This document shows positions 7,683 to 49,366 of a stretch of 64,000 bases of DNA, in pieces. Position numbers and translations under genes: made by a program. The notes under the pieces were generated by a model. That model was not told the DNA's origin and searched no databases. It worked only from the letters and a program-made list of their open reading frames with translations. The stretch is from Parcubacteria group bacterium GW2011_GWA1_40_21 (GTDB lineage: Bacteria > Patescibacteriota > Minisyncoccia > Phycocordibacterales > GWA1-40-21): the NCBI GenBank assembly GCA_000996205.1, contig LBYO01000005.1:1728-65727 (forward strand). Reading direction: 5' to 3'. Numbering within the stretch: the stretch's first letter is position 1; every line of letters starts with the position of its first letter.

Positions 7683-8168
7683 ATGGAAAACAACAACAAG
7701 AAATCCACAGCGATCATCATAGCGATAATCGTGATAATTCTTATCGGAGCAGGTTTTTATTTTTCTTATAAGAAAAGCGGAGTTCAGACAGGAACTACAG
7801 AGGATCAAATTCCTTTGAAAAACGGGTCAAGCTCAAGCTACGAGATTACAGCCATTAATGCAAGACATCAATACAAGAACGGCAAGCACATATACGCGGG
7901 AGTGATTGACCTTCCTACTCCTTGCCATTCCGTCAGTGTTGTGGCGACCCCTTCGGGAACAAACAAATATACGCTTCAATTTACAACAAAGACAACCGAT
8001 GAAGTCTGCGCTCAAGTGATTACCCCGAGACCTTTCAGAGTTGAGTTCGCGGCTCCAAAGAATATTACTGTTGATGCCACTTTGAACGGCAAGCCCATTA
8101 CTCTCAATGTTCTTGAAGTAAAAGAGGGAGAAGATATTGACAAAGTTAAGTTTAACGACAAAGGCTAA
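7683..8168 (+). CDS. membrane-anchored hypothetical protein
   Basis: single N-terminal TM (AIIIAIIVIILIGAGFYF) then Thr/Ser-rich extracytoplasmic domain. Confidence 0.4.
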   Translation: MENNNKKSTAIIIAIIVIILIGAGFYFSYKKSGVQTGTTEDQIPLKNGSSSSYEITAINARHQYKNGKHIYAGVIDLPTPCHSVSVVATPSGTNKYTLQFTTKTTDEVCAQVITPRPFRVEFAAPKNITVDATLNGKPITLNVLEVKEGEDIDKVKFNDKG

Positions 8169-8184: not shown

Positions 8185-9018
8185 ATGCCTAAGAAGGATG
8201 CTTTAATAATCAAGTCTACCGGAGAGAAGGAACTGTTTGACGTCAGAAAATTGGAAGCGTCCCTCGCGAGAGCGGGAGCATCTGAAAGCAGTGTAAGTCT
8301 GATAGCGGAACACATACTTAAAGAAGTGAGAGATGGCATGAGTACGGGAGAAATCTACACTCATGCCTTTTCTCTTTTGCGCCGATACGAAAAACCGGCG
8401 GCTCTTAAATATTCGGTGAGAAGAGCGGTGATGGAATTGGGACCCTCAGGTTTTCCATTTGAAAAATTTATCGCCGATCTTTTCAAGGCCAGAGGGTTTA
8501 AAGCGGAGACCAATCTTTTGGCGAGAGGGAAGTGCGTGGAACACGAAATTGATGTGATGGCTTGGAACGATGTGAAATTGATCATAGCCGAGGCCAAATT
8601 CCACAACGATAACGGCCTTAAATCCGATCTCAAGGTGGCGCTTTATGTCAAAGCGCGCTTTGACGATTTAAAAGAGACTCTTTTCAGCCCGGATGGCAAT
8701 AAAAGAAAATTTGACGAAGCCTATCTCATAACAAACACCAAATTCACTTCTCACGCGATTGATTACGCCAAATGCAGCGGGCTCGCTCTCATTGGTTGGA
8801 ATTATCCGAACACCGGCAATCTTCACAATATGATTGAAGATTTTAATCTTCATCCGATTACCGCCCTGACTGCTCTTAGCGGTTCCGAGAAACGAGATCT
8901 GCTCTCGCAAGGAATCGTGCTTAGCAAACAAATTTCCGACAGAAACATTCTGAAAGGCGTCGGCATAAAAGATGCCAGAATTGACGCGATTCTTCAGGAA
9001 ATAAAAGAACTTTTTTAA
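8185..9018 (+). CDS. ATP-cone domain fused to Mrr-like restriction-endonuclease-fold domain
   Basis: N-terminal ATP-cone pattern (IIKSTGEKELFDVRKLEASL...); central FEKFIADLFKARGFKAE...HEIDVMAW...AEAKFH resembles the PD-(D/E)XK Mrr catalytic core. Confidence 0.6.
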   Translation: MPKKDALIIKSTGEKELFDVRKLEASLARAGASESSVSLIAEHILKEVRDGMSTGEIYTHAFSLLRRYEKPAALKYSVRRAVMELGPSGFPFEKFIADLFKARGFKAETNLLARGKCVEHEIDVMAWNDVKLIIAEAKFHNDNGLKSDLKVALYVKARFDDLKETLFSPDGNKRKFDEAYLITNTKFTSHAIDYAKCSGLALIGWNYPNTGNLHNMIEDFNLHPITALTALSGSEKRDLLSQGIVLSKQISDRNILKGVGIKDARIDAILQEIKELF

Positions 9019-9040
9019 TCTTTCATTTTCGAAAAATTTT

Positions 9041-9078
9041 CAACATCCGATGTCCAAATATTTGGACATCGGATGTTG
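9041..9078. repeat. REP-like palindrome dimer flanking the RAYT gene
   Basis: caacatccgatgtccaaatatttggacatcggatgttg is a perfect 38-bp self-complementary sequence. Confidence 0.8.
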
Positions 9079-9107
9079 AAAAATAAGTCATCGTAAAATG
9101 TAAATTC

Positions 9108-9809
9108 TTATTCAAGGGTGAAACCGTTGAAATCACTGGAGCTGAAATTTTTTAGTTCTTGATAAACCGAATTTTTATAACCTGATTCTCCGCCGAAATA
9201 ATCAAGAAAAAAATCTCTTTGAGTAACCGACGGAAAATTCTTTTTGCCCAGATAATCAAGATGACTGCTCCATCGGTATGATTCAAGAAATTTGATAGCG
9301 GAGTTGAGATTTTTAATACTTCGCTCTCTCCACTCCGGTGCATGAAGATCAAGAGGGTTAAAATGGATGTAGTATGGCATAAAAAGAAAATGACGATCTT
9401 CCGTGATTTGTATTGACTTGTATTTTCCTTGAAACAGAGCTCCGACGCGTTCATATTTTTCATTGAAATATTTTGAGTAGCCCATATTGAGTTTCTTCAT
9501 AAATAAAGAAACGCCTTTTTCATTTATCGGAGAAATTAATAGGTGATAATGATTCGGCATCATGCTAAAAGCATGAATTTTCACTAAGCATTTTCTAGGT
9601 CTTGGTGATTTTGTTTTCTCAATCTTTGGACATTCGATGTCCAAAGATTGATTGTAAGATTGGCAAAAACGGTAATTATTCGCATAAACATTATTTTCAT
9701 CATTGAATTCAAATAAATCGTGAACAAAGCGAAAATGATCTTCTTCATCTTGAAAGATTGTCCTTTTGTCAACGCCCCTGTTGAGTATGTGATATAGTCC
9801 TAATTCCAT
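9108..9809 (-). mobile_element. REP-associated tyrosine transposase (RAYT) / IS200-like HuH Y1 transposase
   Basis: HuH motif MPNHYHLLIS and a Y1-transposase-like C-terminus; flanked on both sides by 'ttggacatcggatgtccaa' palindromes. Confidence 0.75.
9624..9646. repeat. REP-like palindrome copy inside the RAYT coding sequence
   Basis: ctttggacattcgatgtccaaag; in frame it encodes SLDIECPKIE. Confidence 0.6.
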
Positions 9810-9829
9810 TTAATAAAAACATTATAATA

Positions 9830-9852
9830 CTTTGGACATCCGATGTCCAAAT
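9830..9852. repeat. REP-like palindrome upstream of RAYT
   Basis: tttggacatccgatgtccaaat. Confidence 0.8.
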
Positions 9853-9891
9853 ATTTTGTTTAAAAAGATAATTTTGTGATAACATTGTGGA

Positions 9892-10698
9892 ATGTCGCAA
9901 TATTACAATTCAAAGAGGACCAGAAATCTATTCAGTCCGGAATCACAAGAGCCGTTCAAATTGAGTCGTTCAAAGATTGACCTTTTTATTGAGTGTCCGA
10001 GATGTTTTTATCTGGACCGGCGGCTTGGGGTGGGAAGGCCTCCCGGCTTTCCTTTCACTTTAAACAGCGCGGTGGACTTTTTGCTAAAGAAAGAATTTGA
10101 CATTCACAGAAAACATAAAACTACCCATCCTTTAATGGAAAAATACGGAATAGATGCTGTCCCAATCCAGCATCATGATATGGAAATGTGGAGAGATAAT
10201 TTTGTCGGCATTCAACATCTTCATAAGCCGAGTAATTTTATAATTACTGGCGCGATTGACGATCTTTGGGTGAATAAAAAAGGCGAAGTTATTATCGTTG
10301 ATTACAAAGCGACGAGCAAAGACGAAGAGGTTAATCTTGATGCCGAGTGGCAAGACGGTTATAAGCGGCAGATGGAAGTCTATCAATGGCTTTTCAAGCA
10401 AAACGGATTCACGGTTTCTCCGACGGGATATTTCGTTTACGCCAACGGGCGAAAAGACAAAGAAGCCTTTGATGGAAAACTTGAATTTGAAGTGAGTATA
10501 ATAGCTTATAAAGGGAAAACTGATTGGGTGGAAGGCGTGCTTATTGACGCCCAAAAAACCTTGACCGGCGATTCAATTCCTAAAATAGGAGAGAGGTGTG
10601 ATTATTGCCCTTATCGCAACTCGGCGGGGGAGGCGCTCGCAAAAATAGTAAAAGGAGCAAAAGCGAATTTGAAAACCGAGCCGACATTGTTTAGTTGA
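9892..10698 (+). CDS. PD-(D/E)XK nuclease, Cas4-like, with Cys-rich Fe-S signature (solitary, no CRISPR)
   Basis: N-terminal CPRC, catalytic-core-like D...IVDYK, C-terminal GERCDYCPYRNSAGE cysteines as in Cas4/DUF83. Confidence 0.6.
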   Translation: MSQYYNSKRTRNLFSPESQEPFKLSRSKIDLFIECPRCFYLDRRLGVGRPPGFPFTLNSAVDFLLKKEFDIHRKHKTTHPLMEKYGIDAVPIQHHDMEMWRDNFVGIQHLHKPSNFIITGAIDDLWVNKKGEVIIVDYKATSKDEEVNLDAEWQDGYKRQMEVYQWLFKQNGFTVSPTGYFVYANGRKDKEAFDGKLEFEVSIIAYKGKTDWVEGVLIDAQKTLTGDSIPKIGERCDYCPYRNSAGEALAKIVKGAKANLKTEPTLFS

Positions 10699-12341: not shown

Positions 12342-12470
12342 TGTGTGAGCATATCTTCTTTTTTATTGTTGGAGCGAGCATTCTGTTTTTAAAAGCCTTG
12401 CGCAGGAAATTATCCAGCACTTATTTTAGATTTTCAAAATAAGTGCTGGTTTGATTGACGAGCAGAGAAA

Positions 12471-12533
12471 TCCCTCCTCAGTTTTAATCTTAGAAATTTC
12501 TATTTTCCAAAACTGGGGAGGGATATTCGTGCT
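12471..12533. repeat. hairpin element family C ('tccctcctcagtttta...aaaactggggaggga')
   Basis: about 60-bp near-perfect inverted repeat; homologous copies at 21546 (inside rnpB) and 48147 (nested in a MITE). Confidence 0.7.
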
Positions 12534-14418: not shown

Positions 14419-14533
14419 AATATTTTGAATAAGTCCGCATTGTAATAGAAAAATTTAATTTTGTCAAAATTTCGTTAGTTATAAAGTCCATCAAGTTTAT
14501 AAAGTTATAAAGCAAGAGATGATGAAAACCACA

Positions 14534-14567
14534 TTTTGGACATCGGATGTCCAAAATGTCCAAAATA
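14534..14567. repeat. REP-like palindrome copy in the typA-pyrH intergenic region
   Basis: tttggacatcggatgtccaaaatgtccaaaat. Confidence 0.7.
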
Positions 14568-21481: not shown

Positions 21482-21918
21482 CGTCTTTGCGCCGGATAGC
21501 CACTGAGTTCCGACTTGCTCGGAGCTTAGAGGAAAGTCCGAACACTCTCCCTCCCCAGTTTTAGGCTCTCGAAATTTCTATAGTCTAAAACTGGGGAGGG
21601 AAACAGGGTAGCGGGTAACGCCCGTCTGGAGCAATCCAAGAGGTGCGAACAGAGACGCCAAACATCGAAAGATGTTTGGGCGCTTCCGAAAGGAGGCGTA
21701 GTCCAGCTCCAGTTTTGAGAGATTGATTTTTCGATAATTCAAAACTGGGGCTGGGGTGCAACGGCAAAATCCTTACCCGGGTGCAAGGCCGTGTCTCCCG
21801 ATGTAATGTCGGGGGAAGTGCCGCTTGAGTCCAGCGGTAACGCTGGACCTAGATAAATGGCTATACAATTTCGCACAATGCGGAGTAGACAGAATTCGGC
21901 TTATAGGCGCAAAGGCAT
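21482..21918 (+). ncRNA. rnpB: RNase P RNA (bacterial type)
   Basis: conserved GAGGAAAGUCCG (P4 5' strand), GGGUAACGCC, ACAGAAuuCGGCUUA (P4 3' strand); 5' ctttgcgcc pairs with 3' ggcgcaaag (P1). Confidence 0.8.
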
Positions 21919-21920
21919 TA

Positions 21921-48044: not shown

Positions 48045-48245
48045 CTTTGAATTACGAAACCTTCGTTTTCCGTCATTGCGAGCCGGTACTCCGGCGTGGC
48101 AATCCAGAGTTTACCGCGCGCAATAATGGATTGCTTCGCTCCGCTCGCCCCTCCCCAGTTTTAAGTTTTGGAAATATCCAGAATCTAAAACTGGGGAGGG
48201 GCTCGCAAAGACAATGCGGCAATATGATAGTTTCGTAATTCAAAG
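48045..48245. repeat. MITE family A copy carrying a nested family-C hairpin insertion (48147..48200)
   Basis: same TIRs and internal sequence as 32919..33061, but interrupted at ...ccgctcgc|cccctccccagtttt...aaaactggggaggg|gctcgcaaag with duplicated gctcgc. Confidence 0.8.
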
Positions 48246-49063: not shown

Positions 49064-49293
49064 TTTTCTGCTGAAAATTTTATACTCCGCCCTTCGAATC
49101 CTGCCCGTCCCGATGTTCATCGGGACTCTGGGCGGACAATTCCGCTTCGCTGCATTGTCCGCCCAGCAGTAATTTCTCGCCTACAGCGCGTGATTTTCTT
49201 GTTTCGCCGACTCAACATAGAAAATCCTTCGAATCCTGACGAGAGCCAAGCAGTTGGCTCTCTCTGAGCGGACAATTCCGCTTCGCTGCATTG
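49064..49293. repeat. tRNA-Lys-associated modular repeat region (two tandem units)
   Basis: two copies of gcggacaattccgcttcgctgcattgtccgcccagcag (38 bp; includes the tRNA 3' acceptor strand), two ccttcgaatcctg T-arm-like fragments, and a ttttctgctgaaaa hairpin. Confidence 0.7.
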
Positions 49294-49366
49294 TCCGCCC
49301 AGCAGGATTCGAACCTGCGACCAATCGCTTAAGAGGCGACTGCTCTACCAACTGAGCTATAGGCGG
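49294..49366 (-). tRNA. tRNA-Lys (anticodon CTT)
   Basis: manual fold of the minus strand: acceptor ccgccta/tgggcgg, D-arm gctcagttggtagagc, anticodon loop ctCTTaa, T-arm gcaggttcgaatcctgc; no encoded CCA. Confidence 0.8.

Follow-up and report, generated by a model that had tools for sequence, protein, structure and literature searches.

A 64-kb stretch of contig LBYO01000005.1 from Parcubacteria group bacterium GW2011_GWA1_40_21 (64,000 nucleotides, hereafter the window) carries a gene for an HUH/Y1 protein of the REP-associated tyrosine transposase (RAYT) type, REP standing for repetitive extragenic palindromic sequence. The gene is bracketed by its own cognate palindromes, and further copies lie elsewhere. 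We favour the view that gene and palindrome form a RAYT/REP-type system native to bacteria of the candidate phyla radiation (CPR), to which we give a probability of roughly two in three (0.65).

The palindrome, TTGGACATC-N-GATGTCCAA, occurred five times in the window versus zero expected, four of the copies lying at the Y1 gene. The window was searched with the pattern TTGGACATCNGATGTCCAA, tolerating up to three mismatches, and the mean count in 100 dinucleotide-preserving shuffles was 0.00; the 15-nt core, used as the query, returned the identical five sites. Folded as single-stranded DNA (ssDNA), every window copy formed a hairpin beyond those of shuffled sequences (dG -8 to -24 kcal/mol, z -4.7 to -9.8). 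Rfam gave no match at any of the palindromes. The gene and the palindromes are as follows.

9108..9809, minus strand: gene for an HUH/Y1 ssDNA nuclease/transposase-like protein of 233 amino acids (open reading frame list, Pfam, NCBIfam, AlphaFold, Foldseek)
9831..9851, no strand: upstream palindrome, perfect core at 9832-9850 (hairpin dG -8.1, z -4.7)
9619..9651, no strand: in-gene palindrome, core at 9626-9644 (dG -14.9, z -8.3)
9037..9082, no strand: downstream palindrome dimer, units 9039-9057 and 9062-9080 (dG -23.6, z -9.8)
14531..14566, no strand: solo dispersed copy between pyrH and typA, core at 14536-14554 (dG -12, z -5.5 and -6.3)

The upstream unit (9832-9850) lies 23 nt before the ATG, with its centre 32 nt before it. 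The in-gene palindrome has a single core mismatch, beside the centre, and 15-nt arms that are 100% complementary over 9619-9651. Downstream, the two units, both with the outer arms CAACATC/GATGTTG, make up one perfect palindrome of 46 bp (9037-9082, 100% complementary), the near edge of which (9082) is 26 nt past the last base of the stop codon (9108). A related strain (L003; collected sequences are cited by L number) has a 2-nt TC insertion exactly at the centre of the outer dimer unit (7879-7899, equivalent to window 9039-9057). The solo copy at 14536, between a pyrH-like (AA_kinase) and a typA/bipA-like gene (gene table of L001), has a perfect core within a perfect palindrome of 29 bp (14531-14559) and is followed by a tandem duplicate of its right arm, GTCCAAAAT, at 14558-14566; this right-arm duplication is also present in L037, with an analogous case in L187. 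An earlier, sequence-only reading of this DNA had described a 233-aa minus-strand open reading frame with the motif HYHLLIS, a single unit on one side of it and a further copy in the typA-pyrH intergenic region, all of which were borne out: the frame is 9108..9809 with intact motifs, and both copies are perfect. Its inverted dimer on the other side is indeed perfect and inverted, the length being 46 bp and not the 38 bp claimed, and it had overlooked the fifth copy, inside the reading frame (9619-9651).

The Pfam Y1_Tnp match of the protein (E 4e-9) was confined to residues 73-149, and the AlphaFold model (pLDDT, the model's per-residue confidence score, 82) places a helical C-terminal extension (residues ~150-233) beyond this Y1 core. 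The motifs NHYH (86-89), YIHFNP (147-152) and WSS (180-182) are all intact, as is FQ. The sequence-only reading had proposed checking the HuH/Y1 residues by alignment: NHYH and the Y147 of YIHFNP aligned throughout, and H87-Y88-H89, Y147, I148, H149, N151, P152, L153 and W180-S181-S182 were invariant in 62 homologues. Foldseek against the PDB returned as top hit 4er8_A, the Escherichia coli TnpAREP bound to a REP hairpin (E 8e-6), ahead of the ISDra2 and IS608 TnpA proteins, and the NCBIfam model REP_Tyr_transpos was matched by 62/62 family members (best E 2e-13). A large protein collection held 3895 relatives; the best 120 were 57-66% identical over their full length, and their organism-level names (Parcubacteria, Patescibacteria, Harrisonbacteria, Minisyncoccia, with one KSB1 bin as the exception) support the earlier impression of a CPR-like genome.

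The window contains one copy of the Y1 gene, flanked by genes for a PD-(D/E)XK nuclease (9892-10698, plus strand) and an ATP-cone/Mrr-like protein (8185-9018, plus strand). Four window neighbours (PDDEXK nuclease, ATP-cone/Mrr-like, PCMT and MnmA) gave no tblastn match in 80 homologous loci and are therefore not part of the system. Several other CPR contigs (L140, L157/L190, L167 and L152) carry two diverged Y1 paralogues ~2-2.5 kb apart. A viral origin was rejected: among 2.9 million viral contigs (IMG/VR) we found neither an exact palindrome nor a relative of the Y1 gene.

The 80 homologous loci were collected from metagenomes by means of protein patterns in the C-terminal half, outside the palindrome-encoded loop, and with the palindrome ignored. 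The window-type palindrome was present in only 17 of them, but at 45/79 loci one lineage-specific palindrome occupied two or three fixed places: upstream, with its centre mostly ~27 nt before the ATG (range 12-124); within the gene, centred on nt 151-195; and downstream, with its centre mostly 11-28 nt past the stop codon (up to ~110). At least nine palindrome types were seen, comprising GGACATC-N-GATGTCC, GGACGTC-N-GACGTCC, CGACGTC-N-GACGTCG, TGACGTC-N-GACGTCA, GATGTC-N-GACATC, GGTGTC-G-GACACC, GAAGTC-G-GACTTC, CGTCATC-A-GATGACG and a few others. In each of 38 non-redundant genes that also had a flanking copy, the loop region (nt 121-260) was searched for the cognate 13-mer, which was found with no more than two mismatches in 36 (0 mismatches in 25, 1 in 9 and 2 in 2), whereas in two control regions of the same genes it never came below four mismatches. 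The nearest protein relative had the same palindrome type in 27/41 cases versus 10 +/- 3 with shuffled labels (0/2000 shuffles reached 27). Palindrome type thus follows protein relatedness, so that the enzyme co-evolves with its palindrome, the in-gene copy varying in concert with those that flank the gene. When we tried to orient the copies by their central base, this was C, G, T or A, without any consistent pattern among the upstream, in-gene and downstream copies, and the copies are therefore not orientable as left and right ends.

In the window protein the in-gene palindrome encodes residues ~53-63 (NQSLDIECPKI). These fall in segment 42-67, the only low-confidence stretch of the AlphaFold model (pLDDT <50), which forms a disordered loop on the protein surface; it connects helix 22-34 with strand 76-83 and precedes the HUH motif. 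The equivalent loop of homologues reads L/W-D-I-G-C-P, the palindrome in frame (TTG GAC ATC GGA TGT CCA), or else D-V-G-R-P or D-V-R-R-P, which represent variant palindromes and not decay. A shorter Y1 subfamily (L035, L109, L033, L081, L013, L102 and L066; 33-43% identity over the first ~150 aligned residues; motif PIGSI(Y/F)ENSF) is likewise flanked by a GGACATC-type palindrome and carries it at the equivalent structural position, just before the strand leading to HUH, but read in another frame as LGH(R/P)MSK; it is therefore the DNA that is conserved and not the peptide. Selection on the peptide 'DIGCP' was accordingly rejected, given this other-frame reading (LGHRMSK) and the variant palindromes that alter the peptide (DVGRP, DVRRP).

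Dispersal of the palindrome beyond the gene was followed with an exact search for the 19-mer in one genome per species (596 Gb), which returned at least 115 stretches of reference genomes. Among the matches listed, 113/115 were CPR assemblies or unclassified bins, covering Moran-, Nomura-, Niyogi-, Giovannoni-, Kaiser-, Yanofsky-, Yonath-, Zambryski-, Falkow- and Nealsonbacteria, Paceibacterota and others; the two non-CPR exceptions, an Acidobacteriaceae contig (L114, 839 kb) and a 2.6-kb contig of a 'Bdellovibrionales' bin (L042), may be a chance match and a mis-binned contig, respectively. About 17 matches would be expected by chance in the whole collection under uniform base composition, and the concentration of those found in one phylum of small genomes is therefore not due to chance. 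A Y1 gene was present in 16 of the 115 stretches listed, nearly always bracketed by palindromes, while the other 99 held solo copies without a Y1 gene within 8 kb.

Complementarity extended past the 19-mer by a mean of 3.3 nt (0.36 in controls), reaching 6 nt or more in 16% of copies versus 0.04% in controls, and the outer arms were genome-specific: tg|ca in most of the 13 copies of JACOYO01, where one outer-arm family occurs both at the gene and elsewhere over 7 contigs, actg|cagt in CAJWTE01, aatg|catt in CAZCQK01 and ctat|atag in CAYPMZ01. Such genome-specific complementary arms would be the expected outcome of within-genome copying combined with selection for pairing. The far flanks of Y1 loci (197 kb) contained the cognate 13-mer ten times and eight non-cognate types twice altogether; some of these loci are near-duplicates, and fewer independent events therefore lie behind the counts. 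Palindrome density was low, ~0.5 per 10 kb near Y1 loci and roughly one per 20-60 kb with the window taken into account, which puts the estimated copy number in the tens per genome and not the hundreds. Across 132 oriented copies the flanks were weakly A-A-C before and G-T-T after the core, symmetric and with no GT[AG]G foot.

The flanking palindromes might instead be the end hairpins of an autonomous IS200/IS605-like insertion sequence (IS), the 0.8-kb unit being what transposes and the solo copies being its footprints or minimal derivatives. The cassette takes up little space, a hairpin lying just beyond each of the start and stop codons, as beside the gene ends of IS608 and ISDra2, and the protein shares fold and HUH/Y1 chemistry with the TnpA proteins of these two elements; moreover, none of the four window neighbours accompanies the gene at any of the other 80 loci, and paralogues occur in pairs within ~2 kb at some loci. 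We regard this explanation as improbable, however. The tyrosine motif is Y---NP and not the Y---Q of IS200 TnpA (subclass 1.1), the NCBIfam IS200 model (NF033573) scored 13.3 bits against a cut-off of 55 and matched 0/62 family members at E <= 0.01, and the protein is not of the short IS200 kind; the sequence-only reading had named an ordinary IS200 TnpA with terminal hairpins of another sequence as what would overturn its proposal, and YIHFNP together with these scores speaks against such a protein. A single symmetric palindrome recurs at either end and within the gene; the two ends of an IS200-type element are unlike each other. The gene is single in 64 kb where an IS would be multi-copy, with no tnpB-like neighbour in the window, it was not found in the 2.9 million viral contigs, its thousands of homologues diverge to ~60% identity as in a vertically inherited gene, and the palindrome copies are mostly solo.

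A large share of the dispersed copies lies within genes. With a coding copy defined as one in an open frame of at least 150 codons and at least 20 codons from either end, 60/136 exact copies (~44%) were inside such long frames. The palindrome is stop-free in all six frames, and the coding copies use three (LDI[G/R]CP, WTSDVQ and GH[R/P]MS[K/N]). Hosts confirmed by Pfam were MiaA, TsaE, GltX, LigA, UvrA (in two genomes), ThrRS, RecG, GatB and DUF192, and most coding copies fell within Pfam domain envelopes. Orthologues lacking the copy were 5-13 residues shorter at that place in MiaA, LigA, UvrA, RecG and DUF192, the DUF192 orthologue without it being encoded in the window itself, and two genomes differed in copy number and frame at one site of GltX. 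When all loci collected were screened systematically for filled and empty sites, one recent event emerged, in which L108 and L058, with flanks 96% identical, have and lack the copy, respectively. In-frame REPs within genes are known from other bacteria, including the tnpAREP of subclass 2.4 (PMC6006769; PMC3733652), and the in-gene copies described here are unusual in degree and not in kind.

Two further features of the Y1 gene involve its flanking palindromes.

9821..9849, minus strand: promoter-like site for the Y1 gene, TGGACA (9849-9844), 17 nt, TATAAT (11/12 matches)
9027..9082, minus strand: terminator-like site for the Y1 gene, the 46-nt hairpin followed by TTTTTCGAAA (run including TTTTT)

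The promoter-like site had the highest score within 8900-10000 and its -35 box is an arm of the upstream palindrome; its -10 box ends 11 nt before the ATG, which predicts a very short mRNA leader or none. A TATAAT-like box lies between palindrome and ATG in many homologues. Promoter-like sites in the region numbered 4 versus a shuffle mean of 3.9, no excess, and terminator-like sites numbered 4 versus 0.6 expected from shuffles; both kinds are matches to a consensus and not proof of function. A general role of the palindrome as terminator found no support: among intergenic copies 28% had a T-run after the stem, and among coding copies 32% did.

These sites bear on a second alternative, in which the protein would be a domesticated DNA-binding regulator or hairpin-processing factor and the palindromes operators or terminators kept by host selection and not spread by the enzyme. 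The overlap of the upstream copy with a near-consensus -35 box, its constant position relative to the ATG across lineages and the terminator-like downstream dimer fit such a role, as do the high conservation of the protein, its extra C-terminal helical domain and the HTH (helix-turn-helix)-like tails of subclass 2.1 relatives (PMC6006769). An operator, however, makes poor sense where copies sit inside essential genes and use all three frames. There are also tandem, nested and half-duplicated copies, the genome-specific yet complementary outer arms point to copying and base-pairing and not to a fixed duplex site, the T-run is no commoner at intergenic than at coding copies, and the catalytic HUH and Tyr residues are invariant. 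We therefore give the regulator explanation little credence.

In the favoured RAYT/REP-type system, the 233-aa HUH/Y1 enzyme would recognise the hairpin of its cognate palindrome in ssDNA, for instance at replication forks, and would cut and rejoin DNA at or beside it. By analogy with TnpAREP and IS608 TnpA, Tyr147 would do the cutting and rejoining and the HUH histidines would hold the metal. Such activity would copy, replace and homogenise the palindrome at tens of places in each genome, some of them in frame within loops of housekeeping proteins that can accommodate it. The gene itself would constitute a compact cassette of palindrome, ~27 nt, ATG, in-gene palindrome in a disordered loop, stop, ~12 nt and palindrome, in which the upstream copy on the -35 box is a likely site of autorepression by the enzyme and the downstream dimer with its T-run may provide a terminator-like end. 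The enzyme's part as spreader of the copies, the location of the cut and the autoregulation are inferred.

That DNA is broken and rejoined at the hairpin tip, or close to it, is suggested by several features of the sequence: the 2-nt insertion at the exact unit centre in strain L003, arm duplications ending at the centre or within an arm (window 14558-14566, L037, L035 and L187), and palindromes that sit in the middle of older or different ones (L165, L132 and L195). Patch-like replacements together with within-genome homogeneity further suggest conversion between copies besides insertion. One could take this further and suppose that the Y1 enzyme nicks the hairpin tip, that conversion-like overwriting follows, and that the in-gene copy is an obligatory part of a self-limiting circuit, which we consider a doubtful proposition at present. 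If it were true, one hairpin family would be kept homogeneous per genome and written in frame into essential genes, at times in place of other sequence and with the length preserved, by a natural hairpin-guided ssDNA 'editor' conserved across the CPR, distinct both from cut-and-paste IS200 transposition and from what proteobacterial RAYTs have shown.

Alternatively, the palindromes may spread and become homogenised without the Y1 enzyme, through template switching, quasi-palindrome correction or another protein, the Y1 gene being a favoured landing place. Some events do resemble templated patches and not insertions, palindromes extend outward symmetrically, and the CGTC-type REPs of other bacteria have no dedicated transposase (PMC3733652). 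Passive landing can hardly explain three fixed positions at the gene and the match of palindrome type to enzyme phylogeny, however, and enzymes of this family are known to act on hairpins of this kind (4er8). We find this explanation very improbable.

A number of observations weigh against a RAYT/REP-type system driven by this enzyme. The window protein scored 35.7 bits with REP_Tyr_transpos (NF047646), under the cut-off of 80, and searching the PDB by sequence recovered ISDra2 TnpA alone, weakly, and not 4er8, so that the fold search was needed. No shared palindrome was detected at 33/79 homologous loci at the thresholds used, and the enzyme may therefore have a role independent of flanking copies. 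One solo copy in the 64 kb of the window is low for a REP family, and the dispersed set is biased to perfect copies because the search required exact matches. Unlike in simple cut-and-paste insertion, the palindrome of ThrRS and GatB substitutes for other sequence with the length unchanged, and the L108 copy came with a net gain of 24 nt, ~15 nt rewritten on each side and partial palindrome fragments. This complex patch was the sole case, with no clean insertion junctions among the loci collected, and therefore neither a mobile unit nor a target duplication is definable. The enzyme resembles a subclass reported to be REP-less, whereas cognate palindromes occur here upstream, inside and downstream. 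Finally, it is from the enzyme family that we infer binding and cleavage of the hairpin.

The subclass in question is TnpAY1 subclass 2.1 (Quentin et al., 2018, PMC6006769), equivalent to Bertels Group 1 RAYT / TIRYT. Its signature consists of NH[YF]H, FQ, Y[IV]HLNP and an 'SS' proximal tail, with a median length of 238 aa (PMC6006769); the window protein compares well (NHYH, FQ, YIHFNP, WSS and 233 aa), this being a comparison of motifs only and not an assignment by hidden Markov model. No REP-like sequences were found near the published subclass 2.1 genes, some of which have terminal inverted repeats (PMC6006769), and CPR genomes are unmentioned in that Y1 survey.

The sequence-only reading had seen here the classic proteobacterial arrangement of RAYT with REP and bacterial interspersed mosaic element (BIME). 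A RAYT-type enzyme with cognate dispersed palindromes is what we found; the arrangement is not the classic one, because of the 35.7 bits against 80, the subclass 2.1 motifs and the absence of a GT[AG]G foot, and because ~44% of copies are in open reading frames, density is low and an in-gene copy is standard. Nor is it a proteobacterial-type system stray in a CPR genome, since family and palindrome are found across Patescibacteria. With E. coli TnpAREP (REPtron, 4er8) the system shares the HUH/Y1 fold, the Y---NP motif that marks class 2 TnpAY1 proteins (PMC6006769) and cognate flanking and dispersed hairpins, and the gene may likewise be of low copy number, being single in the window. It differs in having ~10% sequence identity, a score under the NCBIfam cut-off and an extra C-terminal domain of 85 aa, and, unlike the E. 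coli REP, its palindrome shows complete symmetry about a centre of 1 nt and lacks the 5' GT[AG]G guide. Copies number tens where E. coli REP/BIME sequences number hundreds, many are intragenic, and a copy inside the enzyme gene is the rule.

Subclass 2.4 (Cyanobacteria/Bacteroidetes) comes closer in one respect, in that REPs lie in frame within tnpAREP, in a peripheral region of the protein (PMC6006769); here, too, copies occur in the enzyme's own gene with the frame kept and in a peripheral region. Unlike in subclass 2.4, the copy occupies one fixed position, which precedes HUH (87-89) and lies between helix A and strand 2; it changes in step with the flanking copies in 36/38 genes, and the protein motifs differ. 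As in the Pseudomonas REPIN-RAYT pairs (REPINs being REP doublets), a Y1 gene that is single in the window and may be mostly vertically inherited co-evolves with short palindromic repeats and inverted dimers occur (window 9037-9082), but where REPINs are extragenic doublets of ~100 bp in hundreds of copies, the repeat here is a single hairpin of 19-35 bp and many copies are intragenic. Palindromic repeats in frame in functional genes are also a property of the Rickettsia palindromic elements and of intragenic GTAG/CGTC REPs (Di Nocera et al., 2013, PMC3733652). The Rickettsia elements are longer. In CGTC REPs the tag is at the foot and no transposase is associated (PMC3733652), whereas the present repeats go with a Y1 gene and the CGTC of our GACGTC variants sits beside the loop.

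A RAYT with REPs is thus a kind of system that is already known. New are the tie between a subclass-2.1-like enzyme and a cognate repeat, the symmetric mini-hairpin without GTAG foot, the conserved upstream/in-gene/downstream layout, the phylum-wide spread and the high share of in-frame copies in essential genes. We found no paper containing the palindrome sequence and no link between RAYTs and Patescibacteria in the literature covered, subscription journals lying outside that coverage. To our knowledge, the copying of REP sequences is still unresolved after decades. The present system offers a small and regular model of this problem, with a symmetric hairpin of 19-35 nt, a compact cassette with three fixed hairpin sites, many natural pairs of enzyme and hairpin variants, with at least nine palindrome types, that could be swapped to map specificity, and one recent presence/absence event. 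The tolerance of a repeat family within essential genes of such streamlined CPR genomes has consequences for how these organisms are annotated and their proteins aligned, and the palindrome provides a CPR sequence marker, all but two of the sampled matches being in CPR assemblies or unclassified bins.

Other repeats were noted in the window. A second hairpin family, CCC(T/C)CCCCAGTTTT - ~24 nt - AAAACTGGGGAGGG, had four to five copies (21548-21601, 21703-21754, 48147-48202 and 12461-12533), two of which (21548-21601 and 21703-21754) lie within the RNase P RNA gene (21484-21919, plus strand) and may be insertions into rnpB. The default Rfam scan missed this gene because its score of 99.4 bits is just under the gathering score of 100. 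The window lacks two segments of ~62 and 65 nt, at ~12548 and ~6377/6378 (L001 7206-7267 and 13433-13497), the first deletion lying between short direct repeats (CTCGC); all six contigs from other samples that are otherwise 99-100% identical to the window (L001-L006) keep whichever of the two segments they span. Lastly, a near-identical 18-nt inverted repeat, CTGGGCGGACAATTCCGC / GCTGCATTGTCCGCCCAG, occurs twice, 136 nt apart (49128-49166 and 49264-49302), and this pair adjoins a tRNA gene (49294-49366).

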